Below are positions 8,845 through 23,027 of a DNA stretch of 64,000 bases, piece by piece. A program made the translations under genes and the position numbers. Position 1 is the first letter of the stretch, and each line of letters opens with the position of its first letter. The stretch comes from Escherichia coli O127:H6 str. E2348/69 (GTDB taxonomy: Bacteria; Pseudomonadota; Gammaproteobacteria; Enterobacterales; Enterobacteriaceae). The stretch is taken from assembly GCF_000026545.1 (NCBI RefSeq), contig NC_011601.1; one strand, given 5' to 3'. The notes under the pieces were generated by a model. That model searched no databases. It worked only from the letters and a program-made list of their open reading frames with translations, and was not told the DNA's origin.

Positions 8845-11800
8845 GTGAAGTTTTTTGCCCTCTTCATTTACCGCCCGGTGGCGACGATTTTACTGTCGGT
8901 CGCCATTACCCTGTGCGGCATACTGGGCTTCCGTATGCTGCCGGTCGCCCCACTGCCGCAGGTCGATTTTCCGGTGATTATGGTCAGCGCCTCGCTGCCC
9001 GGTGCGTCACCAGAAACAATGGCGTCTTCCGTTGCCACGCCGCTGGAACGTTCGCTTGGGCGCATTGCCGGGGTTAGTGAAATGACCTCCAGTAGTTCGC
9101 TCGGCAGCACGCGCATTATTTTGCAGTTTGATTTTGACCGCGATATCAACGGCGCAGCGCGTGATGTGCAGGCGGCGATCAACGCTGCACAAAGTTTGCT
9201 GCCCAGTGGGATGCCCAGCCGTCCGACCTATCGCAAAGCGAACCCGTCGGATGCGCCAATTATGATCCTCACGCTGACATCCGATACTTATTCGCAGGGT
9301 GAACTGTACGATTTCGCCTCGACGCAGTTGGCTCCGACGATTTCGCAAATCGACGGTGTCGGTGATGTCGATGTTGGCGGCAGCTCGCTGCCCGCCGTAC
9401 GCGTCGGGCTGAATCCTCAGGCGCTGTTTAATCAGGGCGTCTCGCTGGACGACGTACGCACCGCCATCAGCAATGCCAACGTGCGTAAACCGCAGGGGGC
9501 GCTGGAAGATGGTACTCACCGCTGGCAGATCCAGACTAACGATGAACTGAAAACCGCCGCTGAATATCAGCCGCTGATTATTCATTACAACAACGGCGGC
9601 GCGGTTCGTCTGGGCGATGTGGCGACGGTGACCGACTCTGTACAAGATGTACGTAACGCCGGGATGACCAACGCCAAACCGGCTATTTTGCTGATGATCC
9701 GCAAGCTGCCGGAAGCCAATATTATCCAGACGGTAGACAGCATCCGCGCCCGTCTGCCGGAATTACAATCCACCATTCCGGCGGCGATTGATCTGCAAAT
9801 TGCCCAGGATCGCTCCCCTACTATCCGCGCGTCGCTGGAAGAGGTTGAGCAGACGCTGATTATCTCGGTGGCGCTGGTGATTCTGGTGGTGTTTTTGTTC
9901 CTGCGTTCGGGTCGCGCCACCATTATTCCCGCCGTTGCGGTGCCGGTTTCGCTGATTGGTACGTTTGCGGCGATGTACCTGTGTGGTTTCAGTCTCAATA
10001 ATCTTTCGTTAATGGCGCTCACCATCGCCACTGGCTTTGTGGTGGATGACGCCATCGTGGTGCTGGAAAACATTGCCCGTCATCTGGAGGCGGGGATGAA
10101 ACCGTTACAGGCCGCGCTGCAAGGTACTCGCGAAGTCGGCTTTACGGTGCTGTCGATGAGTCTGTCACTGGTGGCGGTGTTCCTGCCGCTGCTGTTGATG
10201 GGCGGATTGCCGGGTCGCCTGTTACGCGAGTTTGCCGTGACGCTTTCTGTCGCCATTGGTATTTCGCTGCTGGTTTCCCTGACGTTAACGCCGATGATGT
10301 GCGGCTGGATGCTAAAAGCCAGCAAGCCGCGCGAGCAAAAGCGACTGCGTGGCTTTGGTCGCATGTTGGTAGCCCTGCAACAAGGCTATGGCAAGTCGCT
10401 GAAATGGGTGCTCAATCATACCCGTCTGGTGGGCGTGGTGCTGCTTGGCACCATTGCGCTGAATATCTGGCTGTATATCTCGATCCCGAAAACCTTCTTC
10501 CCGGAGCAGGACACCGGCGTACTGATGGGTGGGATACAGGCTGACCAGAGTATTTCGTTTCAGGCGATGCGCGGTAAGTTGCAGGACTTCATGAAAATTA
10601 TCCGTGACGATCCGGCGGTGGATAATGTCACCGGCTTTACCGGCGGTTCACGGGTGAACAGTGGAATGATGTTTATCACCCTTAAACCACGCGGCGAGCG
10701 GAGCGAAACGGCCCAACAGATTATCGATCGCTTGCGTAAAAAACTGGCTAAAGAACCGGGAGCGAATCTGTTCCTGATGGCGGTACAGGATATTCGCGTT
10801 GGCGGACGTCAGGCTAACGCCAGTTACCAGTACACGTTGTTATCCGACGACCTGGCGGCACTGCGCGAATGGGAGCCGAAAATCCGCAAAAAACTGGCGA
10901 CATTGCCAGAGCTGGCTGATGTTAACTCCGATCAGGAAGATAATGGCGCGGAGATGAACCTTATTTACGATCGCGACACCATGGCGCGACTGGGAATTGA
11001 CGTGCAAGCCGCCAACAGCCTGTTAAATAACGCCTTCGGTCAGCGGCAAATCTCGACCATTTACCAGCCGATGAACCAGTACAAAGTGGTGATGGAAGTT
11101 GATCCGCGCTATACCCAGGACATCAGTGCACTGGAAAAAATGTTCGTTATCAATAACGAAGGAAAAGCGATCCCGCTGTCATATTTCGCTAAATGGCAAC
11201 CGGCGAACGCTCCACTGTCGGTGAATCATCAGGGATTATCGGCGGCCTCGACCATTTCGTTCAACCTGCCGACCGGGAAATCGCTCTCGGACGCCAGTGC
11301 GGCGATCGATCGCGCAATGACCCAGCTTGGTGTGCCTTCGACGGTGCGCGGCAGTTTTGCCGGAACAGCGCAGGTGTTCCAGGAGACGATGAACTCACAG
11401 GTGATCCTGATTATCGCCGCCATCGCCACGGTATATATCGTACTGGGTATCCTTTACGAGAGTTATGTGCATCCACTGACGATTCTCTCCACCCTACCCT
11501 CGGCGGGCGTCGGAGCGCTGTTGGCGCTGGAGCTGTTCAATGCCCCGTTCAGCCTAATTGCGCTGATAGGGATCATGTTATTAATCGGCATCGTGAAGAA
11601 AAACGCCATTATGATGGTCGATTTTGCACTTGAAGCCCAACGGCACGGTAACCTGACGCCGCAGGAAGCTATTTTCCAGGCCTGTCTGCTGCGTTTTCGC
11701 CCGATTATGATGACTACCCTGGCGGCGCTGTTTGGTGCGCTGCCGCTGGTATTGTCGGGCGGTGACGGCTCGGAGTTGCGGCAACCATTGGGGATCACCA

Positions 11801-11922
11801 TTGTCGGCGGTCTGGTCATGAGCCAGCTTCTGACGCTGTATACCACGCCGGTGGTGTATCTCTTTTTCGACCGTCTGCGGCTGCGTTTTTCGCGTAAACC
11901 TAAACAAGCGGTAACCGAGTAA
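8845..11922 (+). CDS. mdtC: RND multidrug efflux transporter MdtC
   Basis: 1025-aa ORF, GTG start immediately after mdtB stop, RND paralog of MdtB. Confidence 0.95.
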
Positions 11923-13338
11923 ATGACAGATCTTCCCGACAGCACCCGCTGGCAATTGTGGATTGTGGCTTTCGGCTTCTTTATGCAGTCGCTGGACACC
12001 ACCATCGTTAACACCGCGCTTCCCTCAATGGCGCAAAGCCTCGGGGAAAGTCCGTTGCATATGCACATGGTCATTGTCTCTTATGTACTGACCGTGGCGG
12101 TGATGCTGCCCGCCAGCGGCTGGCTGGCGGACAAAGTCGGCGTGCGCAATATTTTCTTTACCGCCATCGTGCTGTTTACTCTCGGTTCACTGTTTTGCGC
12201 GCTTTCCGGCACGCTGAACGAACTGTTGCTGGCACGCGCGTTACAGGGCGTTGGCGGCGCGATGATGGTGCCGGTCGGCAGGTTGACGGTGATGAAAATC
12301 GTACCGCGCGAGCAATATATGGCGGCGATGACCTTTGTCACGCTGCCCGGTCAGGTCGGGCCGCTGCTTGGCCCGGCGCTCGGCGGTCTGCTGGTGGAGT
12401 ACGCATCGTGGCACTGGATCTTTTTGATCAACATTCCGGTGGGGATTATTGGGGCGATCGCCACACTGATGTTAATGCCGAACTACACCATGCAGACGCG
12501 GCGCTTTGATCTTTCCGGCTTTTTATTGCTGGCGGTTGGCATGGCGGTATTAACCCTGGCGCTGGACGGCAGTAAAGGTACAGGTTTATCGCCGCTGGCG
12601 ATTACTGGCCTGGTCGCAGTTGGTGTGGTGGCACTGGTGCTTTATCTGCTGCACGCCAGAAATAACCACCGCGCTCTTTTCAGTCTGAAACTGTTCCGCA
12701 CCCGTACCTTTTCGCTGGGTCTGGCGGGGAGTTTTGCCGGACGTATTGGCAGCGGTATGTTGCCCTTTATGACGCCGGTTTTCTTGCAAATTGGCCTTGG
12801 TTTCTCACCGTTCCATGCCGGACTGATGATGATCCCGATGGTGCTTGGCAGCATGGGAATGAAGCGAATTGTGGTACAGGTGGTGAATCGCTTTGGTTAT
12901 CGTCGGGTGCTGGTGGCAACCACGCTGGGTCTGTCGCTGGTCACCCTGTTGTTTATGACCACCGCGCTGCTGGGCTGGTACTACGTTTTGCCGTTCGTCC
13001 TGTTTTTACAAGGAATGGTCAACTCGACGCGTTTCTCCTCCATGAACACCCTGACGCTGAAAGATCTCCCGGACAATCTGGCGAGCAGCGGCAACAGTCT
13101 GCTGTCGATGATTATGCAATTGTCGATGAGTATCGGCGTCACCATCGCCGGGCTGTTGCTGGGACTTTTTGGTTCACAGCATGTCAGCGTTGACAGCGGC
13201 ACCACACAAACCGTCTTTATGTACACCTGGCTTAGCATGGCGTTTATCATCGCCCTTCCGGCGTTCATCTTTGCCAGAGTGCCGAACGATACGCATCAAA
13301 ATGTAGCTATTTCGCGGCGAAAAAGGAGCGCGCAATGA
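11923..13338 (+). CDS. mdtD: MFS transporter MdtD
   Basis: 471-aa MFS ORF contiguous with mdtC. Confidence 0.93.
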
Positions 13339-14738
13339 AGTTCTGGCGACCCGGTATTACCGGCAAACTGTTTCTGGCGATTTTCGCCACCTGCATTGTC
13401 TTGCTGATCAGTATGCACTGGGCGGTGCGTATCAGTTTTGAGCGTGGCTTTATTGATTACATCAAGCATGGTAATGAACAGCGATTACAACTGTTAAGTG
13501 ATGCGCTTGGCGAGCAGTATGCGCAGCATGGCAACTGGCGCTTCCTGCGCAACAATGATCGCTTTGTCTTTCAGATCCTGCGTTCATTTGAACACGATAA
13601 TTCGGAAGATAAACCCGGCCCGGGTATGCCACCGCACGGCTGGCGTACCCAGTTCTGGGTGGTTGATCAAAACAACAAAGTGCTGGTTGGTCCGCGAGCG
13701 CCGATTCCACCTGACGGTACACGGCGACCCATTCTGGTCAACGGTGCGGAAGTTGGCGCGGTGATCGCCTCCCCCGTTGAGCGGTTAACGCGCAATACTG
13801 ATATCAACTTCGATAAACAACAGCGGCAAACCAGCTGGTTGATTGTCGCTCTGGCAACGTTACTCGCGGCACTCGCTACTTTTCTGCTGGCGCGCGGTTT
13901 GCTGGCACCGGTAAAACGACTTGTCGATGGCACGCACAAACTGGCGGCGGGCGATTTCACTACCCGCGTAACGCCCACCAGTGAAGATGAACTGGGCAAA
14001 CTGGCGCAAGACTTCAACCAGCTCGCCAGCACGCTGGAGAAAAACCAGCAAATGCGGCGCGATTTTATGGCCGATATTTCTCACGAACTGCGTACGCCAT
14101 TAGCGGTGCTGCGCGGTGAACTGGAAGCCATTCAGGATGGCGTGCGCAAATTCACGCCGGAGACGGTGGCGTCTTTACAGGCGGAGGTCGGTACACTGAC
14201 CAAACTGGTTGACGATCTTCATCAGTTGTCGATGTCTGATGAAGGCGCTCTCGCCTATCAAAAAGCACCGATAGATTTGATCCCACTGCTGGAAGTGGCG
14301 GGAGGCGCATTTCGCGAACGATTCGCCAGCCGTGGCCTGAAATTGCAATTTTCCCTGCCAGACAGTATTACCGTATTTGGCGATCGCGATCGTTTAATGC
14401 AGTTGTTCAATAACTTACTGGAAAACAGCCTGCGCTACACTGACAGCGGCGGCAGCCTGAAAATCTCTGCCGAGCAGCACGACAAAACGGTGCGCCTGAC
14501 CTTTGCCGACAGTGCGCCGGGTGTCAGTGACGATCAGCTACAAAAATTGTTTGAACGTTTTTATCGCACCGAAGGTTCCCGCAACCGCGCCAGCGGTGGT
14601 TCCGGGCTGGGGCTGGCGATTTGCCTGAACATTGTTGAAGCACATAACGGCCGCATTATTGCCGCCCATTCGCCTTTTGGCGGGCTTAGCATTACAGTAG
14701 AGTTACCGCTGGAACGGGATTTACAGAGAGAAGTATGA
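13335..14738 (+). CDS. baeS: Envelope-stress sensor histidine kinase BaeS
   Basis: 467-aa ORF with H-box [11 protein letters not shown] and HATPase region; 4-nt overlap with mdtD. Confidence 0.95.
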
Positions 14739-15457
14739 CCGAGTTACCAATCGACGAAAACACACCGCGTATTTTGATCGTGGAAGATGAACCGAAGCTG
14801 GGGCAGTTGCTCATTGATTATCTGCGTGCTGCGAGCTATGCGCCAACGTTGATTAGCCACGGCGATCAGGTACTGCCATATGTGCGCCAGACACCACCGG
14901 ATCTGATCCTGTTGGATCTGATGCTCCCTGGCACCGATGGCCTGACGCTGTGCCGGGAAATTCGTCGTTTTTCTGACATTCCGATCGTGATGGTGACGGC
15001 AAAAATCGAAGAGATCGACCGCCTGCTGGGGTTGGAGATTGGCGCAGATGACTATATCTGCAAGCCGTACAGCCCACGGGAAGTGGTAGCGCGCGTCAAA
15101 ACCATTTTGCGCCGTTGCAAACCACAGCGTGAGTTGCAGCAACAGGATGCTGAAAGCCCGTTGATTATCGACGAAGGTCGTTTTCAGGCTTCCTGGCGCG
15201 GTAAAATGCTTGACCTGACGCCTGCAGAATTTCGTCTGCTGAAAACGCTCTCTCATGAACCAGGAAAAGTGTTCTCCCGCGAGCAGTTGCTGAACCATCT
15301 TTATGACGACTACCGCGTGGTAACCGACCGTACCATCGACAGCCACATTAAAAACCTGCGCCGCAAGCTGGAATCTCTCGACGCCGAACAGTCATTTATC
15401 CGCGCCGTTTACGGCGTCGGTTACCGCTGGGAAGCCGACGCCTGCCGCATCGTTTAA
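14735..15457 (+). CDS. baeR: OmpR-family response regulator BaeR
   Basis: 240-aa ORF with receiver domain and winged-helix C-terminus; overlaps baeS stop. Confidence 0.95.
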
Positions 15458-15636
15458 CATTTTTACCTGCCGGAGATGGCCTTCAGACCAGATCCGGCAA
15501 CATTATCCCACGCATGGTCAGCAAACTGACATTATCTCTCCGCCCTGGCAGGCACCAGAAAATCGCTCATACTTTGATTGGCAAACAGTACCTTTAGATG
15601 CTGTTTTCGATACGCAATTTCAATCAAGGAGTCATT

Positions 15637-15969
15637 ATGGCTGGTTGGTTTGAACTCAGTAAGAGCAGTGATAATCAGTTCCGGTTTGTGCTAAAAGCGG
15701 GCAATGGTGAGACTATCCTCACCAGCGAGCTGTATACCTCAAAAGCCTCTGCGGAAAAGGGCATCGCGTCGGTGCGTAGCAACAGCCCGCAAGAAGAACG
15801 CTATGAGAAAAAAACGGCAAGCAATGGCAAATTCTATTTCAATCTGAAAGCCGCCAATCATCAAATTATCGGCTCCAGCCAGATGTATGCCACCGCGCAA
15901 TCTCGTGAAACCGGAATTGCCTCCGTTAAAGCAAATGGCACAAGCCAGACGGTGAAAGACAATACGTAA
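15637..15969 (+). CDS. yegP: UPF0339 family protein YegP
   Basis: 110-aa reading from MAGWFELSKSSDNQFRF with AGGAG ribosome-binding site 7 nt upstream; two tandem DUF1508-like halves. Confidence 0.85.
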   Translation: MAGWFELSKSSDNQFRFVLKAGNGETILTSELYTSKASAEKGIASVRSNSPQEERYEKKTASNGKFYFNLKAANHQIIGSSQMYATAQSRETGIASVKANGTSQTVKDNT

Positions 15970-16115
15970 TGACGATGCCGGGCGTAGGTTGTTGGCGTCC
16001 GGCGCTTTACCAGTTACCCCCACAGCGCTACAATGCCCGCCCTTAAAGTGGGGGCACTCCCCTAACCGCTTCATCAGGTGAAGCGGCTCTGACCTGTCAT
16101 CAGAACGAGAGAATT

Positions 16116-17477
16116 ATGTTTAAACCGGAACTCCTTTCCCCGGCGGGAACGCTGAAAAATATGCGTTACGCTTTCGCTTATGGCGCAGATGCTGTTTATG
16201 CGGGCCAGCCGCGTTACTCCCTGCGTGTGCGCAACAACGAATTCAACCACGAAAATCTTCAGCTCGGCATCAATGAAGCCCACGCGCTGGGGAAAAAGTT
16301 TTATGTCGTGGTCAACATTGCACCGCACAACGCCAAGCTGAAAACCTTTATCCGTGACCTGAAACCGGTGGTGGAAATGGGGCCGGATGCGCTGATTATG
16401 TCCGATCCAGGGCTGATTATGCTGGTGCGTGAGCACTTCCCGGAAATGCCAATCCACCTCTCGGTACAGGCTAACGCCGTAAACTGGGCGACGGTGAAAT
16501 TCTGGCAGCAAATGGGTCTGACCCGCGTGATCCTCTCTCGCGAACTGTCACTGGAAGAGATTGAAGAGATCCGCAATCAGGTGCCGGATATGGAGATCGA
16601 AATCTTCGTTCACGGCGCGCTGTGCATGGCCTACTCCGGTCGCTGCCTGCTCTCTGGCTATATCAACAAGCGCGACCCGAACCAGGGCACCTGCACCAAC
16701 GCCTGCCGCTGGGAGTATAACGTCCAGGAAGGGAAAGAAGATGACGTCGGCAACATCGTACACAAGTACGAGCCGATTCCGGTGCAAAATGTTGAGCCGA
16801 CGCTGGGTATCGGCGCGCCAACCGACAAAGTGTTTATGATCGAAGAAGCCCAGCGTCCGGGCGAATATATGACCGCGTTTGAAGATGAGCACGGCACTTA
16901 CATCATGAACTCAAAAGATCTGCGCGCCATCGCCCATGTTGAACGCCTGACCAAAATGGGCGTGCATTCGCTGAAAATCGAAGGCCGTACCAAATCTTTC
17001 TACTATTGCGCACGCACCGCGCAGGTTTACCGTAAAGCTATCGATGACGCCGCTGCGGGCAAACCGTTCGATACCAGCCTGCTGGAAACGCTGGAAGGTC
17101 TGGCGCATCGTGGCTATACCGAAGGTTTCCTGCGTCGTCATACCCACGACGATTATCAGAACTACGAATACGGTTATTCGGTTTCTGACCGTCAGCAGTT
17201 TGTTGGTGAGTTTACCGGTGAGCGCAAGGGGGAGCTCGCGGCGGTAGCGGTGAAAAATAAATTCTCCGTTGGCGACAGCCTTGAGCTGATGACGCCGCAA
17301 GGCAACATTAACTTTACCCTTGAGCACATGGAAAACGCCAAAGGTGAAGCAATGCCGGTCGCACCAGGCGATGGTTATACTGTGTGGCTCCCGGTGCCGC
17401 AGGATCTTGAGCTAAATTACGCGCTGCTGATGCGTAATTTCTCCGGGGAAACCACGCGTAACCCCCACGGTAAGTGA
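16116..17477 (+). CDS. yegQ: U32-family peptidase-like protein YegQ
   Basis: 453-aa ORF, U32 peptidase family features (Cys-rich GALCMAYSGRCLLS region). Confidence 0.9.
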   Translation: MFKPELLSPAGTLKNMRYAFAYGADAVYAGQPRYSLRVRNNEFNHENLQLGINEAHALGKKFYVVVNIAPHNAKLKTFIRDLKPVVEMGPDALIMSDPGLIMLVREHFPEMPIHLSVQANAVNWATVKFWQQMGLTRVILSRELSLEEIEEIRNQVPDMEIEIFVHGALCMAYSGRCLLSGYINKRDPNQGTCTNACRWEYNVQEGKEDDVGNIVHKYEPIPVQNVEPTLGIGAPTDKVFMIEEAQRPGEYMTAFEDEHGTYIMNSKDLRAIAHVERLTKMGVHSLKIEGRTKSFYYCARTAQVYRKAIDDAAAGKPFDTSLLETLEGLAHRGYTEGFLRRHTHDDYQNYEYGYSVSDRQQFVGEFTGERKGELAAVAVKNKFSVGDSLELMTPQGNINFTLEHMENAKGEAMPVAPGDGYTVWLPVPQDLELNYALLMRNFSGETTRNPHGK

Positions 17478-17505
17478 TTAATTTCGATTATTTTTCCCGG
17501 ATGGA

Positions 17506-17555
17506 AAATTCTTAGAAACCGATCACATACAGCTGCATTTATTAAGGTTATCATC
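17506..17555 (+). promoter_or_regulatory. cyaR promoter region with CRP-like half-site
   Basis: TCACA half-site at 17523-17527 and TATCAT -10-like hexamer ending about 7 nt before the cyaR 5' end; upstream half-site is degenerate. Confidence 0.35.
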
Positions 17556-17561
17556 CGTTTC

Positions 17562-17648
17562 GCTGAAAAACATAACCCATAAAATGCTAGCTGTACCAGG
17601 AACCACCTCCTTAGCCTGTGTAATCTCCCTTACACGGGCTTATTTTTT
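17562..17648 (+). ncRNA. cyaR: CyaR (RyeE) Hfq-dependent small RNA
   Basis: GCTGAAAAACATAACCCATAAAATGCTAGCTGTACCAGGAACCACCTCCTTAGCCTGTGTAATCTCCCTTACACGGGCTTATTTTTT matches the CyaR sequence from memory, ending in its own terminator hairpin and U-tract. Confidence 0.9.
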
Positions 17649-17806
17649 ATGCATAAGCCCTATCCCTGGTCACCGTCTTCCATTGACCACATCGATAGAA
17701 TCCTCCTTCATAGCACGATGCCTTTTACTTATCGACATCGTACTCGCACAGGTTCCGGTTACGCACAGCCAGAACGCGCATGTTTGACGCTTACCAAAAA
17801 ATATTC

Positions 17807-18124
17807 TCACTCTCCACATTTGAATGTCAGACGAGCGACGCCATGTAATCCTGCACCTTCTGTCTTCAGGTCAACTATCTGCATTTTTTTGCCCTGAGTA
17901 ACACAGAAATGAGTTGCATCATTTTTTACTATATTTTCTGCACCAGATATTCTACCCCTGGCTAAAGAAGCTTCGGCTTCGGTGTAGTATTGGTTATCGA
18001 GTTTACGCTGAATATTACTTTTATATGCAAGGCCAAAATTACCGATACTTGTCTCATCATTATGCACAGCACAACCAGACATAAGAAAAACACTAATTAA
18101 TGATATAGCAGCTATCTTTTTCAC
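17807..18124 (-). CDS. yegR: Lipoprotein YegR
   Basis: 105-aa reading from MKKIAAISLISVFLMSGC (lipobox) within the 110-aa track ORF. Confidence 0.8.
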   Translation of the reverse strand: MKKIAAISLISVFLMSGCAVHNDETSIGNFGLAYKSNIQRKLDNQYYTEAEASLARGRISGAENIVKNDATHFCVTQGKKMQIVDLKTEGAGLHGVARLTFKCGE

Positions 18125-18538
18125 CTTACCTTCCCCCATTAATTACCAACGACATTCTCTAGTGTTTAAATATAATAATGGCATGATTATTATAATTGAA
18201 TAGGATTATAATAAATGTTCTGTACAACATTTCCTACATAAGTAGGAATTACAGACATGGAGGCCCTTCCGGGTAACCCCATGGGGGACTTTAATATATT
18301 TTGAATAGTATATTGAAGATGCCACTGTTTAGTTGAATATTAGGTATATTCTCTTTTTTAAAATTTATCAGTGGCTACCGTTAATATTCGCTGTCCCCAT
18401 TGTAAGCTCCTGGTGGTAAGCACTGAATCCCCATACCTGAACTGACTTTTTATCCTCCGACTTTCATCCTGTTCTGACTCCACCTTTTCTTTTCTGCTCT
18501 ACACTATCTACAGACCAATCATAAAGGCACATACGATC

Positions 18539-19438
18539 ATGGCAGAATTTCCCGCCAGCTTACTGATTCTTAATGGCAAAAGTACTGACAATCTACCCTT
18601 GCGCGAAGCAATTATGCTGTTGCGTGAGGAAGGAATGACGATCCATGTGCGGGTTACCTGGGAGAAAGGTGATGCCGTACGATTTGTAGAGGAGGCCCGG
18701 AAGTTAGGTGTCGCAACAGTGATTGCCGGTGGTGGCGATGGCACCATTAATGAAGTTTCTACGGCATTGATTCAATGTGAGGGGGATGACATACCCGCGC
18801 TGGGAATTTTACCATTAGGAACTGCCAATGATTTTGCCACCAGTGTAGGGATTCCTGAGGCACTGGATAAGGCGCTGAAACTGGCAATTGCCGGTAACGC
18901 CATTGCGATAGATATGGCGCAGGTCAACAAACAAACCTGTTTTATTAATATGGCGACAGGCGGATTTGGGACGCGTATTACCACAGAAACGCCGGAAAAA
19001 TTAAAAGCCGCGCTGGGTGGCGTCTCTTACATCATTCATGGCTTAATGCGCATGGACACTCTGCAACCGGACCGTTGTGAAATCCGCGGTGAAAACTTTC
19101 ACTGGCAAGGTGACGCCCTGGTCATTGGTATTGGTAACGGGCGTCAGGCCGGTGGCGGTCAACAATTGTGCCCGAACGCATTAATTAACGATGGCTTGCT
19201 GCAACTGCGCATTTTTACCGGCGATGAAATTATTCCGACTCTCGTATCAACCTTAAAATCTGACGAAGATAACCCGAATATTATCGAAGGTGCTTCGTCG
19301 TGGTTTGATATACAAGCCCCACACGAAATCACTTTTAATCTTGATGGCGAACCGTTGAGTGGGCAAAACTTCCATATTGAAATACTTCCGGCGGCGTTGC
19401 GTTGTCGATTACCACCAGATTGTCCATTGTTAAGGTAA
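18539..19438 (+). CDS. yegS: Lipid kinase YegS (DAG-kinase-like)
   Basis: 299-aa ORF with diacylglycerol-kinase catalytic-domain motif GGDGT. Confidence 0.92.
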
Positions 19439-19518
19439 GTACAAAACAAACGCAGAAGCAGGATCCGCAGGCCGGCATCATCCCTGGATTCTTCTGCACT
19501 TACAATTTTTTCATGCAG

Positions 19519-20160
19519 TCACCCCGTTGCCATTAACTCTTCAAGTGATGCATACCCGACTACCGCAGAGTTAAAGCACGGCTGTTGAAAATCCTCGGCG
19601 ACAACAATCGTTTTAATTCCCGCTGCCTGTGCAGCTTTAAAACCACTCAGACTGTCTTCTATAACCAGACAATCTGCGGCGGGCAGGCGTAATTTTCGTA
19701 GTGCGGAGAGGTAAACTGCCGGATGTGGTTTGCCGTGGCTTTCGTCGTCAGCACTGCAAATCACCGAAAAACAGTGTTCAATTTTGAGTTTTGTCAGCAC
19801 CGCATCAATCACCTGATAAGATGAAGAGGTCGCCAGTGCCAGTTGGTATCCTGACTGGCATAAAAAAGTGAGCACATTCTTTACCCCCGGCATGGCCTCG
19901 CCTTTTTCAGCAATTAACGTGGTTATCAGGCGACGGATCTCCGCTTCCAGTTCCGTGGGCGTAATAGACAGATGACAGTATTCGCACCAGGTTCGGGCTA
20001 TCTCATCAAGCCTTTTCCCTTTCGTCAGTTGGATACACTCTTCATCGCTAACGCTGGCACCCCATCGTGCCAGCGCTCCTTGTTGCGCCTGACGCCATAA
20101 TCCTTCCGAATCAATAATGACGCCGTCCATATCAAAAATAACTGCTTTGCAATTAAACAT
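19519..20160 (-). CDS. HAD-superfamily sugar phosphatase
   Basis: 213-aa ORF with HAD motif I FDMDGVIIDSE; last gene of the minus-strand dal cluster. Confidence 0.75.
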   Translation of the reverse strand: MFNCKAVIFDMDGVIIDSEGLWRQAQQGALARWGASVSDEECIQLTKGKRLDEIARTWCEYCHLSITPTELEAEIRRLITTLIAEKGEAMPGVKNVLTFLCQSGYQLALATSSSYQVIDAVLTKLKIEHCFSVICSADDESHGKPHPAVYLSALRKLRLPAADCLVIEDSLSGFKAAQAAGIKTIVVAEDFQQPCFNSAVVGYASLEELMATG

Positions 20161-20204
20161 CGTTCCTCACATTAAAGCCTGGCATTACACCAGGCTTGCC
20201 TCCA

Positions 20205-21482
20205 TCAGGAAACCGTCGCGGCTTCACCTGCTCTTAATTTCTGGGTTGAGAATCCTGGTTGTTCAACCCGAATAAACGGGCAAATAATAAACGCGATAAT
20301 GTACAGGGTTGTATAAGCTATAACCACACCAATTGCACTGAAATAAGGTAACAGCACCACGGCTATCGCAGGGGCAAGAAAGTTAGACAGACCGGCAGAG
20401 AGGTTATAAACCGAAATCGCCGCGCCTTTGTGTTTTGGCTCCAGCGCCGGGAAAACCGCCGCCATCGGCACGAACGCTGCAACAAAGATCCCCAGCGCAA
20501 CGGCGGGCACCATTGCCATCCAATAGTTATGCCCGAAGTATTGCGGCATGTAGTAGAAAGCCAGACTGGAAAGTGCCATTCCCACACAGCCGAACCAGCG
20601 AACAACTTTCATCCAGCCAATCTTCTCTGCCAGTACGCCCCAGAAAATGTTGGTAAAAATCGTCGTGAAGAAGAAGACCGCCCACACCTGTAGCCACTCG
20701 GACGTAGTAAAGCCCAGTTCATCGACAAACATCATCGGCATAATCACCGCAAAGCCAAACAGTGACAATGTATTGATAATTCGCACAATACTGGAGAGCA
20801 AAATGTTGCGGTTGGTGTAGAGTAAGGTGACAGCACGGCCGAGCTCGCTGAACTTCTCTTTGGTCGTCAGATTTTGCATATGATGCGGAGTCTGAACTTT
20901 ACGCATCGAAACCAACGCAAGAATGCCGCCAGTTACGCAAAATCCCAGCGCCAGCCACAGGGTGCCCATTTCGCCGATAACCGGAATGGTAAAGCTGGGA
21001 ATGTAACTACCGAAAACGCCAATACCAATGGAGTAAACCGCCCAGAACCAGCCCAGCGCGGCACTGGTACTGTCGCTGCGCACGTTATGCACAACGGCAA
21101 CGATAAAGGCGTAAAGGAAGAGAGGATATGCCAGACCACGAATGCCGTAGAACAGCAGAATTAATGCATAGTTCGCCTGCCCCAGACCGAAGACCAGAAA
21201 CAGCACATGGAAAATACACCACAGTACAAAACCGATGAACATGGTCTTTTGCGGCGTAATAATTTCCGCCACCACGCCGGATACCCATGCAGAGAGTGCC
21301 GCCGCCAGACCATACAGCGTGAAAGCAAATGAAGCTTCCGCAGGCGTAAAGCCCAGCGCCTTAATATAGTGCGATAGGAATGCCAGTTCAAAACCATCGC
21401 CGGTCATAAAGATAGCAATCGCTATATATCCCCAGACCAGATTTAAAGGTAATCCCAGCCATTGTTTATTGGTTAACGACAT
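20205..21482 (-). CDS. dalT: MFS polyol transporter (DalT-like)
   Basis: 425-aa reading from MSLTNKQWLGL with GAGG ribosome-binding site; 12-TM MFS; track ORF extends 8 codons upstream. Confidence 0.7.
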   Translation of the reverse strand: MSLTNKQWLGLPLNLVWGYIAIAIFMTGDGFELAFLSHYIKALGFTPAEASFAFTLYGLAAALSAWVSGVVAEIITPQKTMFIGFVLWCIFHVLFLVFGLGQANYALILLFYGIRGLAYPLFLYAFIVAVVHNVRSDSTSAALGWFWAVYSIGIGVFGSYIPSFTIPVIGEMGTLWLALGFCVTGGILALVSMRKVQTPHHMQNLTTKEKFSELGRAVTLLYTNRNILLSSIVRIINTLSLFGFAVIMPMMFVDELGFTTSEWLQVWAVFFFTTIFTNIFWGVLAEKIGWMKVVRWFGCVGMALSSLAFYYMPQYFGHNYWMAMVPAVALGIFVAAFVPMAAVFPALEPKHKGAAISVYNLSAGLSNFLAPAIAVVLLPYFSAIGVVIAYTTLYIIAFIICPFIRVEQPGFSTQKLRAGEAATVS

Positions 21483-21550
21483 AGTGACCTCGTTTGTAGG
21501 GTACAAAACGCCGCTCCGGTGTCACCACCGGAGAGCATTAATGACAGTTG

Positions 21551-23014
21551 TTATTGGTTGCGATAGTTAAGATCGTTGTTGTATAGCGCGTTAAACTGTT
21601 GATAACGTTGCATCAAAGCCTGATGGCGTTCAGCATCGCTGTGCCAGGTTTGGTAGATTTCCGGTTTTTCGCAGACCGCCGTCAGCGGTTTACCTGCGGC
21701 TAGACAAGCCAGACGCGCCGCGCCAAGCGCACCACCGGTTTCCCCACCTTTATGCGTTACAACCGGCATGTTGAGAATATCCGCCAGCAGTTGCGCCCAG
21801 AACGGACTTCTCGCCCCTCCCCCCACCAGCGAACATTGTTCAATAGCCGTTCCACTCTCTTGCAGAACACGCAGTCCGTCAGCAATACCAAAACTCACAC
21901 CTTCCAGTACGGCATAGCCCATCAGTGCTCGCTGGCTGGAATGGGTCAGTCCCCAGAACATCCCTCTGGCATCCGAGTCGTTATGGGGAGTCCGTTCTCC
22001 GGAAAGATATGGCAGAAACATCGGGGCACTGGCTTTTTCTGCTGGCGAAAGCTGGGCTATCTCTTCGAGTAATTCTGTTTCGGTAACGCCCACCAGACGG
22101 CAAAACCATTGCAAGCAACTTGCGGCGCTAAGCATGACGCTCATCTGATGCCATAAATTCGGCAGCACATGGCAAAATGCGTGGACGGCTGATTGCGGGG
22201 CCGGACGATAAGCATCAGTCACCACAAACAGAACGCCCGATGTCCCCAGAGAAATAAACGCATCGCCGGGAGATACTGCGCCCACACCGATGGCGCTAAC
22301 CGCGTTATCCCCTCCGCCACCAGCCACCATCACCGAAGGCGTCAGCCCCCAGCGTTCGGCTACACACGGTTCGAGCGTGGCAGAGACATCACAACCTTCC
22401 ACCAGTTCCGGCATATTTGCCCGCGTCAGGCCACACTTTTGCAATAGCGAGTCTGACCAGTCACGTTTTTCCACGTCGAGCCACAACGTGCCCGCCGAAT
22501 CCGACATATCGGAGACTTTTTTGCCAGTCATTTTGAAGCGCAAATAGTCTTTCGGCAGTAACACCGTCGCAATACGTGCAAAATGCTGCGGTTCATGGTT
22601 CCGTACCCACAACAGTTTCGGCGCGGTAAATCCGGGCATCGCCAGGTTGCCAGCCACTTGATGCAGCTCTGGTGCAATCTCTTCCAGTTCCGTACACTCA
22701 AGAGCACTGCGGGTATCGTTCCATAAAATCGCCGGACGAATCACCTTCCCGGCCTCATCCAGCAGCACTGCGCCGTGCATCTGACCAGAAAGGCCAATCG
22801 CTTTAATCGCTTGCCAGTGCTGACCGCATTTTTCCCGTAGCGTTGACATCAGGTATTCCGTCGCCTCCCACCAGGCCTGCGGCGATTGTTCTGACCAGTG
22901 TGGATGGGGCCGCTGAATAGTCAGCGGCGCGCTATGTGTGGCGACTATTTCATTGTTTTCATCAATGACCAGCGCCTTAACTTCCGATGTTCCCAGATCG
23001 ATACCCAGATACAT
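21551..23014 (-). CDS. dalK: D-xylulokinase (FGGY family, DalK-like)
   Basis: 487-aa ORF, MYLGIDLGTSEVKA N-terminus and FGGY C-terminal motifs. Confidence 0.8.
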   Translation of the reverse strand: MYLGIDLGTSEVKALVIDENNEIVATHSAPLTIQRPHPHWSEQSPQAWWEATEYLMSTLREKCGQHWQAIKAIGLSGQMHGAVLLDEAGKVIRPAILWNDTRSALECTELEEIAPELHQVAGNLAMPGFTAPKLLWVRNHEPQHFARIATVLLPKDYLRFKMTGKKVSDMSDSAGTLWLDVEKRDWSDSLLQKCGLTRANMPELVEGCDVSATLEPCVAERWGLTPSVMVAGGGGDNAVSAIGVGAVSPGDAFISLGTSGVLFVVTDAYRPAPQSAVHAFCHVLPNLWHQMSVMLSAASCLQWFCRLVGVTETELLEEIAQLSPAEKASAPMFLPYLSGERTPHNDSDARGMFWGLTHSSQRALMGYAVLEGVSFGIADGLRVLQESGTAIEQCSLVGGGARSPFWAQLLADILNMPVVTHKGGETGGALGAARLACLAAGKPLTAVCEKPEIYQTWHSDAERHQALMQRYQQFNALYNNDLNYRNQ

Positions 23015-23027
23015 AACCGCCTCCTGG

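Follow-up and report, generated by a model that had tools for sequence, protein, structure and literature searches.

The stretch of DNA analyzed here (hereafter the window) comprises 64,000 nucleotides of Escherichia coli O127:H6 str. E2348/69 (NC_011601.1), and the part of it considered here contains the gene for the small RNA (sRNA) CyaR together with the divergent genes yegR and yegS. Specifically, cyaR occupies positions 17560–17645 on the plus strand, where the match to Rfam family RF00112 (100.7 bits against a gathering score of 47; E = 1.5e-19) spans the covariance model in full, from position 1 to position 85 of 85; CyaR is the sole RNA family found in an Rfam scan of 10000–26000. The sRNA gene ends in an intrinsic terminator on the same strand (17613–17649), for which a terminator scan and the predicted RNA fold agree on a hairpin at 17613–17640 with an 11-bp stem and a 6-nt loop, followed by a T run. 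Upstream, a plus-strand open reading frame (ORF) of 453 amino acids (16116–17477) is yegQ, named trhP in the E2348/69 RefSeq annotation, and yegQ/trhP likewise precedes cyaR in nearly all Enterobacterales loci among the matches listed in our scan of other genomes.

On the other side of cyaR lies yegR, a small lipoprotein gene on the minus strand (17807–18124), whose stop codon is separated from cyaR by 161 nt with no gene between them. That yegR follows cyaR directly, as originally predicted, is borne out both by Rfam and by the RefSeq annotation of the identical E2348/69 sequence. The next gene, yegS (18539–19438, plus strand), encodes a lipid kinase (NCBIfam NF009602, E = 1.2e-147; Pfam DAGK_cat and YegS_C), and an AT-rich tract separates the two divergent genes. 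Because no minus-strand terminator-like site was found between the yegR stop codon and cyaR (17650–17806), yegR transcripts may run antisense into cyaR. In K-12, yegR and yegZ are given as one transcription unit, yegRZ (PMC3946193).

Several features of the yegR gene itself bear mention. Its longest ORF extends to an ATG at 18139; the codon that serves as the ATG start in K-12 is a GTG in E2348/69 (18124), and the in-frame upstream ATG would add five residues. Both starts are used in YegR database entries, which are 105 and 110 amino acids long. YegR gave no match against local copies of Pfam and NCBIfam, and a precomputed assignment to PF27694 (YegR) exists in the protein database. The 83 database homologs, where named, are almost all from E. 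coli or Shigella, and the protein has been detected as a lipoprotein in the O157:H7 proteome (PMC3210124). A plus-strand ORF antisense to yegR (17649–17897, 82 amino acids) has no family match and was judged spurious. Beyond yegS (19519–26400), the window holds a HAD hydrolase, a RbtT/DalT-type transporter, xylB, dalD (D-arabinitol) and decayed ribitol-type genes, and the equivalent position in K-12 is taken by gatR and the gat operon, an alternative-cassette polymorphism beside the phage site.

The P2 attachment core at cyaR and its occupants

The 27-nt core annotated as attP in the phage P2 genome (AF063097), AATCTCCCTTACACGGGCTTATTTTTT, matches window positions 17622–17648 at 27/27 positions, and the base that follows matches too. 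Present once in the window, this core takes in the terminator loop of cyaR along with the 3′ stem and the U run, forming the 3′ half of the terminator; in the P2 record it is flanked by annotated Int, IHF and Cox binding sites. Judged by this identity, P2 has its bacterial attachment site (attB) in the 3′ half of the cyaR terminator, and in E2348/69 that site is empty and presumably still competent for recombination. Consistent with an empty site, no trace of P2 Int, C, Cox, Ogr, gpD or gpU came up at the locus in tblastn searches (best E = 0.18); the positive control, the K-12 remnant discussed below, returned values of 5e-54 and 2e-42. A search for attachment-core repeats near 17640–17700 had been proposed along with the prediction that an unoccupied phage attachment region lies at the cyaR 3′ end, and both the P2 core found at 17622–17648 and the P2-like prophages that sit there in other genomes bear that prediction out.

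Integration at this site would proceed by P2 integrase joining the phage's 27-nt core to the identical core in the cyaR terminator, and cyaR is rebuilt intact in the process because the phage brings its own copy of the core. This rebuilding is visible at the left junctions of K-12 and of strain 61_150228. In the latter, a complete P2-like prophage occupies the cyaR site in the order cyaR–core–ogr–D–tail genes…cox–C–int–core–yegR, with the core duplicated at its two ends (attL and attR) and with an int–att region that is 98.7% identical to that of phage P2. There are also E. coli genomes in which the alignment to our query breaks at window position 17622. The core in E2348/69 does not differ from that at the P2 site in other E. 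coli, where it is likewise identical to P2 attP and lies at the same position at the cyaR 3′-end; the site is empty, as it is in most E. coli genomes.

The use of cyaR as a P2 integration site, with a remnant in K-12, is already known and belongs to textbook-level E. coli genomics. We take the site to be locI, the one that P2 prefers in E. coli C, and a description of the K-12 remnant was reportedly published in 1992 by Barreiro and Haggard-Ljungquist. The genome paper on E. coli W gives "cyaR RNA" as a P2 insertion site, with Wphi2 in W, ogr-D' in K-12, P2*B in B and no occupant in Crooks (PMC3032704). More broadly, the arrangement resembles the integration of phages and islands at the 3′-ends of tRNA, tmRNA and sRNA genes, for example P2-type phages at rybB and other elements at ssrA and leuX (PMC3032704, Table 2). 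As in those cases, a phage copy of the gene's end lets the gene survive, and here the loop and 3′ stem of the terminator form the crossover core; unlike tRNA targets, the target at cyaR is the terminator of an Hfq-dependent sRNA.

Comparison with K-12 MG1655 locates the difference between the two strains precisely. The MG1655 annotation places a "cryptic prophage PR-X" (2167183–2167811), consisting of ogrK and the pseudogene yegZ (a D fragment), between cyaR and yegR, just as the original prediction had it. In pairwise BLAST, window 17348–17656 corresponds to K-12 2166900–2167208 and window 17631–18700 to K-12 2167812–2168873; the 26-bp stretch shared by the two alignments (17631–17656) is present as a single copy in the window and flanks a 629-bp insert in K-12. 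The alignment with K-12 that had been suggested as a check therefore puts the 629-bp junction at 17631–17656, and the gene content of the two strains differs here. The K-12 insert is the leftover, ogrK and a D fragment, of a P2-type prophage that had integrated at the cyaR core. At the right end of PR-X (K-12 2167799–2167829), the gpD fragment is fused within the core (GAGAACTCTGC|TACACGGGCTT...) and the first 9 nt of the 27-nt core are gone; this junction looks like a deletion ending inside the crossover region.

The frequency of each state among E. coli genomes was taken from junction-specific queries. A 111-nt query across the empty junction (17590–17700) aligns without a break in 4206 of 5426 complete E. 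coli genomes (77.5%), and about 22% are interrupted at the core. The right junction specific to K-12 occurs in 358 of the 5426 (6.6%), and the roughly 860 genomes that remain have other occupants, full prophages included. Most E. coli genomes thus have an empty cyaR site, K-12 being the exception. An earlier estimate of small versus large insertions was dropped, as the right-hand piece of the query alone passes the 80% coverage filter. A separate length polymorphism lies just past the yegR stop codon, where 948 of the 5426 genomes carry a 170-bp AT-rich indel between the positions equivalent to 17799 and 17800; it is absent from E2348/69 and K-12 and occurs as one copy per genome, and so is not a repeated mobile element.

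The 809-bp block between the attachment core and yegS

Comparison with other members of the genus reveals a second difference at the same place. In the genome CP089930.1, which is labelled E. coli E69 and is a separate species representative (about 89% identical at the start of yegS), the sequence equivalent to 17556–17648 is identical at all 93 of 93 positions and that equivalent to 18458–18527 at 68 of 70, and only TGTACCA (7 nt) lies between them. Escherichia sp. E1V33 has the same boundaries, and the gap between cyaR terminator and spacer is 6–7 nt in both genomes. Since the E69 and E1V33 junctions are without the block, the 809 bp at 17649–18457, which hold yegR and most of the AT-rich tract (GC 0.39), represent an insertion in the E. 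coli lineage. Its start coincides with the end of the att core, and what follows its end (18458–18538, plus strand) is the ancestral cyaR–yegS spacer, conserved upstream of yegS in E69, E1V33 and E. albertii.

The wider distribution points the same way. Scanning species-representative genomes with a conserved cyaR pattern yielded at least 120 loci from many Enterobacterales genera, and among the matches listed yegS starts about 100 bp past the cyaR terminator in many genera; a YegR match was found at none of the 120 cyaR matches listed. Non-coli Escherichia contribute three loci to the matches listed, with E. fergusonii not included. The block is absent from E69 and E1V33, related genomes with an empty site, and its base composition is atypical (GC 0.39 against 0.506 for the window). 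The original prediction that the tract is typical of horizontally derived DNA is supported to the extent that it lies within a lineage-specific, low-GC insertion. The proposal that 18140–18538 is strongly AT-rich and without a convincing ORF holds overall, but its last 81 bp (18458–18538) are conserved core-genome sequence outside the acquired block.

Arm similarities and the origin of the block

Two stretches inside the block resemble the arms that flank the P2 core. On the left, 17661–17700 aligns with the P arm of a P2-like prophage at 32 of 39 positions and includes an exact 15-mer, CATTGACCACATCGA, that falls inside an annotated Int arm-type site; the segment of the P2 record that matches this left arm is annotated as an Int "P arm" binding site. 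The alignment scores 21, compared with 9.15 ± 1.86 under the null (shuffle p = 2e-4), and none of 2544 genomic windows scores as high. On the right, 18368–18452 aligns with the P′ arm and core of a P2-like prophage at 62 of 83 positions, with 13 gap columns, and scores 24 against a null of about 9 ± 1.9; no score as high was seen in 20000 shuffles (p < 5e-5) or in 5097 genomic 100-mers. This right-hand alignment begins where the P2 int gene ends and stops 5 nt before the insertion boundary. The second, degenerate core within it (~18428–18454) is by itself a weak match, at 20/28 and a p of about 0.01–0.02, and it lies directly beside the boundary. Hence the block is bounded by direct repeats of the att core, intact on the left and 20/28 on the right, and inside these repeats the P and P′ arms stand in the correct order and orientation.

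It might be argued that such similarities arise by chance in what is an ordinary AT-rich intergenic promoter region, given that AT-rich divergent promoter regions are common in E. coli and that promoter-like matches occur here at the frequency seen in shuffled sequence. However, the two arm alignments beat all or nearly all shuffles and every other position in the 64-kb window, and the boundaries of the insertion coincide with an att core that is itself matched at 27/27; we find chance resemblance scarcely credible.

The relationship could also run in the other direction, with P2 having captured the chromosomal flanks of cyaR by imprecise excision, such that the flanks are native and there is no scar. 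Phages that integrate into RNA genes always bear host-like sequence, and the similarity beyond the core is short, both of which are compatible with capture. Yet the arms are annotated Int, IHF and Cox binding sites in the P2 record, the block is missing from sister lineages, and the right-hand relic, 800 bp from cyaR and accompanied by a second core, is something that capture by a phage cannot explain. In addition, the same P-arm motif is found in the P2-type elements of hosts that have no E. coli block: a P2-type P arm (...ATGAAATAAAAGGATTTATTTC...) follows cyaR at at least nine loci from Enterobacter, Citrobacter, Trabulsiella and Buttiauxella. The presence of these arms after cyaR in other genera implies that they are native to the phage family instead of having been acquired from E. 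coli, and capture appears very improbable. Likewise, the core variants of these P2-type elements match each host's own cyaR terminator stem (ACGCAGGC versus ACACGGGC), which suggests that phage att core and sRNA terminator co-vary. It appears, then, that the same sRNA terminator has been struck repeatedly by P2-family elements across the Enterobacteriaceae. One further cyaR locus came from a 9688-bp contig (JAIJJM010000051.1) binned as a Collinsella (Actinobacteria) metagenome-assembled genome, in which a P2 attL of exactly the E. coli type comes after the cyaR pattern; this is almost certainly a mis-binned contig from an E. coli lysogen.

We think it likely that an empty P2 attB makes up the 3′ half of the cyaR terminator, that the 809-bp block beside it is the remnant of an older P2-family prophage, and that the AT-rich tract, most of which lies in the block, now acts as a control region. 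The block would have entered as a prophage when a P2-family element integrated at the same core, and all phage genes would since have been lost, leaving a relic of the P arm on the left and relics of the P′ arm and second core on the right, with yegR between them. That gene would be either cargo retained from the old element or DNA that arrived later, and the AT-rich tract would now serve as the divergent control region of yegR and yegS. The original prediction that no P2-like remnant is present here stands for the recent one, PR-X, as there is no ogr or D sequence; it does not stand for the yegR block, which with its decayed att arms is apparently an older remnant. In the literature searched, we came across no account that treats yegR and the adjacent AT-rich spacer as an older scar of P2 type.

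The same site in E. albertii provides a useful comparison. There, cyaR is followed by the core, a P arm, a 3.4-kb block encoding CdtA, CdtB and CdtC, a P′ arm, a core matching at 25/26, TGTACCG, and then sequence that corresponds to the window from 18458 onward. In E. albertii NBRC 107761 (locus L010, 4906–8360), cdtA, cdtB and cdtC are the only genes left between well-preserved P2 att arms, and this layout marks cdtABC as a toxin operon that outlasted the loss of the rest of a P2-family prophage. This E. albertii scar is built like the yegR block (core, P arm, cargo, P′ arm, second core, and no phage genes), and the two share the same right boundary (window 18458). They differ in cargo, which is a toxin in E. 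albertii and a small lipoprotein gene in E. coli, and in preservation, the E. coli arms being far more decayed, at 75–82% identity with gaps, than those of E. albertii with its 25/26 core. Together, yegR in E. coli and cdtABC in E. albertii make an example pair of prophage decay down to the DNA between the att arms, and the yegR block adds one more case to a well-known process instead of representing a new type of element.

The interior of the block is where the assignment of yegR to the old element meets its main challenge. No phage gene is recognisable inside the block (tblastn with Int, C, Cox, Ogr, gpD and gpU; best E = 0.18), and at the DNA level its interior (17701–18366) has only two matches among phage records, both of which include host flank. 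With yegR as putative phage cargo, tblastn against 50,697 phage records likewise returned two matches only, ON470606.1 and AY639599.1, both with host flank; a DNA search with the entire block led to these two records again. A scan of IMG/VR found 80 yegR loci, all of them E. coli yegR at 95–98% identity, the majority no more than about 1.6 kb from the end of a contig; these were set aside as the host flank of predicted P2-like prophages and, like the two phage records, are uninformative on the origin of yegR. One predicted viral contig of this kind, IMGVR_UViG_2565956724_000008 (47,980 bp), carries yegR at both ends, perhaps because the assembly of a P2-like prophage region has been wrapped or duplicated. 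The more divergent yegR homologs come from two settings, an Enterobacter island rich in IS elements and transposons and a metagenomic contig in which the chromosomal site is unrelated; both fit a mobile gene moving between genomes. In the Enterobacter example (Enterobacter sp. BIDMC 29; locus L129, 6001–6318), the YegR homolog is 51% identical and its island contains Tn3-, IS110- and IS3-type transposases, an omptin and an MFS transporter.

These observations leave room for a reading in which the empty P2 attB and the old P2-type scar are both real, but the decayed interior was later replaced by yegR and AT-rich DNA through unrelated recombination or insertion. In its favor, 17701–18366 is without phage genes or phage-like DNA, yegR is found in no independent phage, its divergent homologs sit in IS and transposon contexts rather than in prophages, and the 170-bp single-copy indel beside the gene indicates an interior that is still changing. 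Nonetheless, such a replacement requires an extra event placed exactly between two short relics, and E. albertii shows that cargo alone, in the form of cdtABC, can persist between P2 arms at the cyaR site. We consider later replacement unlikely.

If the block does have this origin, the annotation of a prophage-derived region at the cyaR locus would reach past PR-X to just upstream of yegS. The scar would also account for the origin of yegR, an orphan gene, and of the promoter region through which H-NS and EvgA control it, which is of modest value. A perfect core stands beside a surviving Int arm-type site (17680–17694), and a decayed att site lies 800 bp away; the yegR block might therefore still respond to P2 Int and Cox provided in trans, which could bias P2 toward this site or occasionally excise the block, with yegR as a phage-delivered lipoprotein gene brought under EvgA acid-stress control. 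We regard this combination as rather improbable. Were it to happen, excision would recreate the short cyaR–yegS junction of other Escherichia, ...GGGCTTATTTTTT-(few nt)-CGACTTTCATCC.

The AT-rich yegR/yegS control region

The region between yegR and yegS (18125–18538) has a GC content of 0.351–0.358. For 18140–18538 the value is 0.358, against a window mean of 0.506, and only 1.3% of 399-nt windows in the 64 kb are as AT-rich. This tract contains only ORFs of up to 41 amino acids, no RefSeq gene is annotated there in K-12 or E2348/69, and its sequence is 95% conserved in K-12, where the regulation of the spacer has been studied. Specifically, genomic SELEX in K-12 lists it as "yegRZ < HNS > yegS", an H-NS-bound spacer with promoters in both directions (PMC3946193), and the suggestion that the tract is typical of H-NS-bound DNA is supported by that work. 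The published K-12 promoter on the yegS side, TTTAAA-17-TATTAT (PMC3946193), could be located at 18165–18193. A promoter consensus scan of the region gave sites no more frequent than in shuffled sequence, and the promoter positions therefore follow the K-12 literature only.

Upstream of yegR, at 18231–18248, lies an EvgA box, TTCCTACATAAGTAGGAA, that is identical in K-12 and has one mismatch to the consensus TTCYTACANNTGTARGAA; it is the sole match in the 64 kb, where 0.03 would be expected. The consensus was validated beforehand, matching the upstream regions of K-12 safA, ydeP, emrK/evgA, frc and yfdX far above chance. According to a review, yegR is among the promoters strongly bound by EvgA in K-12 and is a direct target (PMC8147483). 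By analogy with K-12, yegR and yegS share the AT-rich tract as their divergent control region, which contains an EvgA site and for which H-NS binding has been reported in K-12, and H-NS and EvgA probably act in E2348/69 as they do in K-12; control of the yegR promoter by these two proteins is already known from the K-12 literature. The layout is like that of the K-12 acid-response genes that are activated by EvgA and silenced by H-NS (ydeP, safA-ydeO, yfdX, frc and emrKY), in which an 18-bp inverted-repeat EvgA box likewise lies about 100–250 bp upstream in an AT-rich setting.

Some smaller features of the spacer are also apparent. A GC-rich island, GGAGGCCCTTCCGGGTAACCCCATGGGGGAC, containing the palindrome CCCCATGGGG, interrupts the AT-rich spacer midway (18260–18290), some 15 nt from the EvgA box, and is followed at about 18300 by a 9-bp indel relative to K-12. 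The lowest-GC 399-nt stretch of the window lies elsewhere, around 50599–50997 (GC 0.286), far from the cyaR site.
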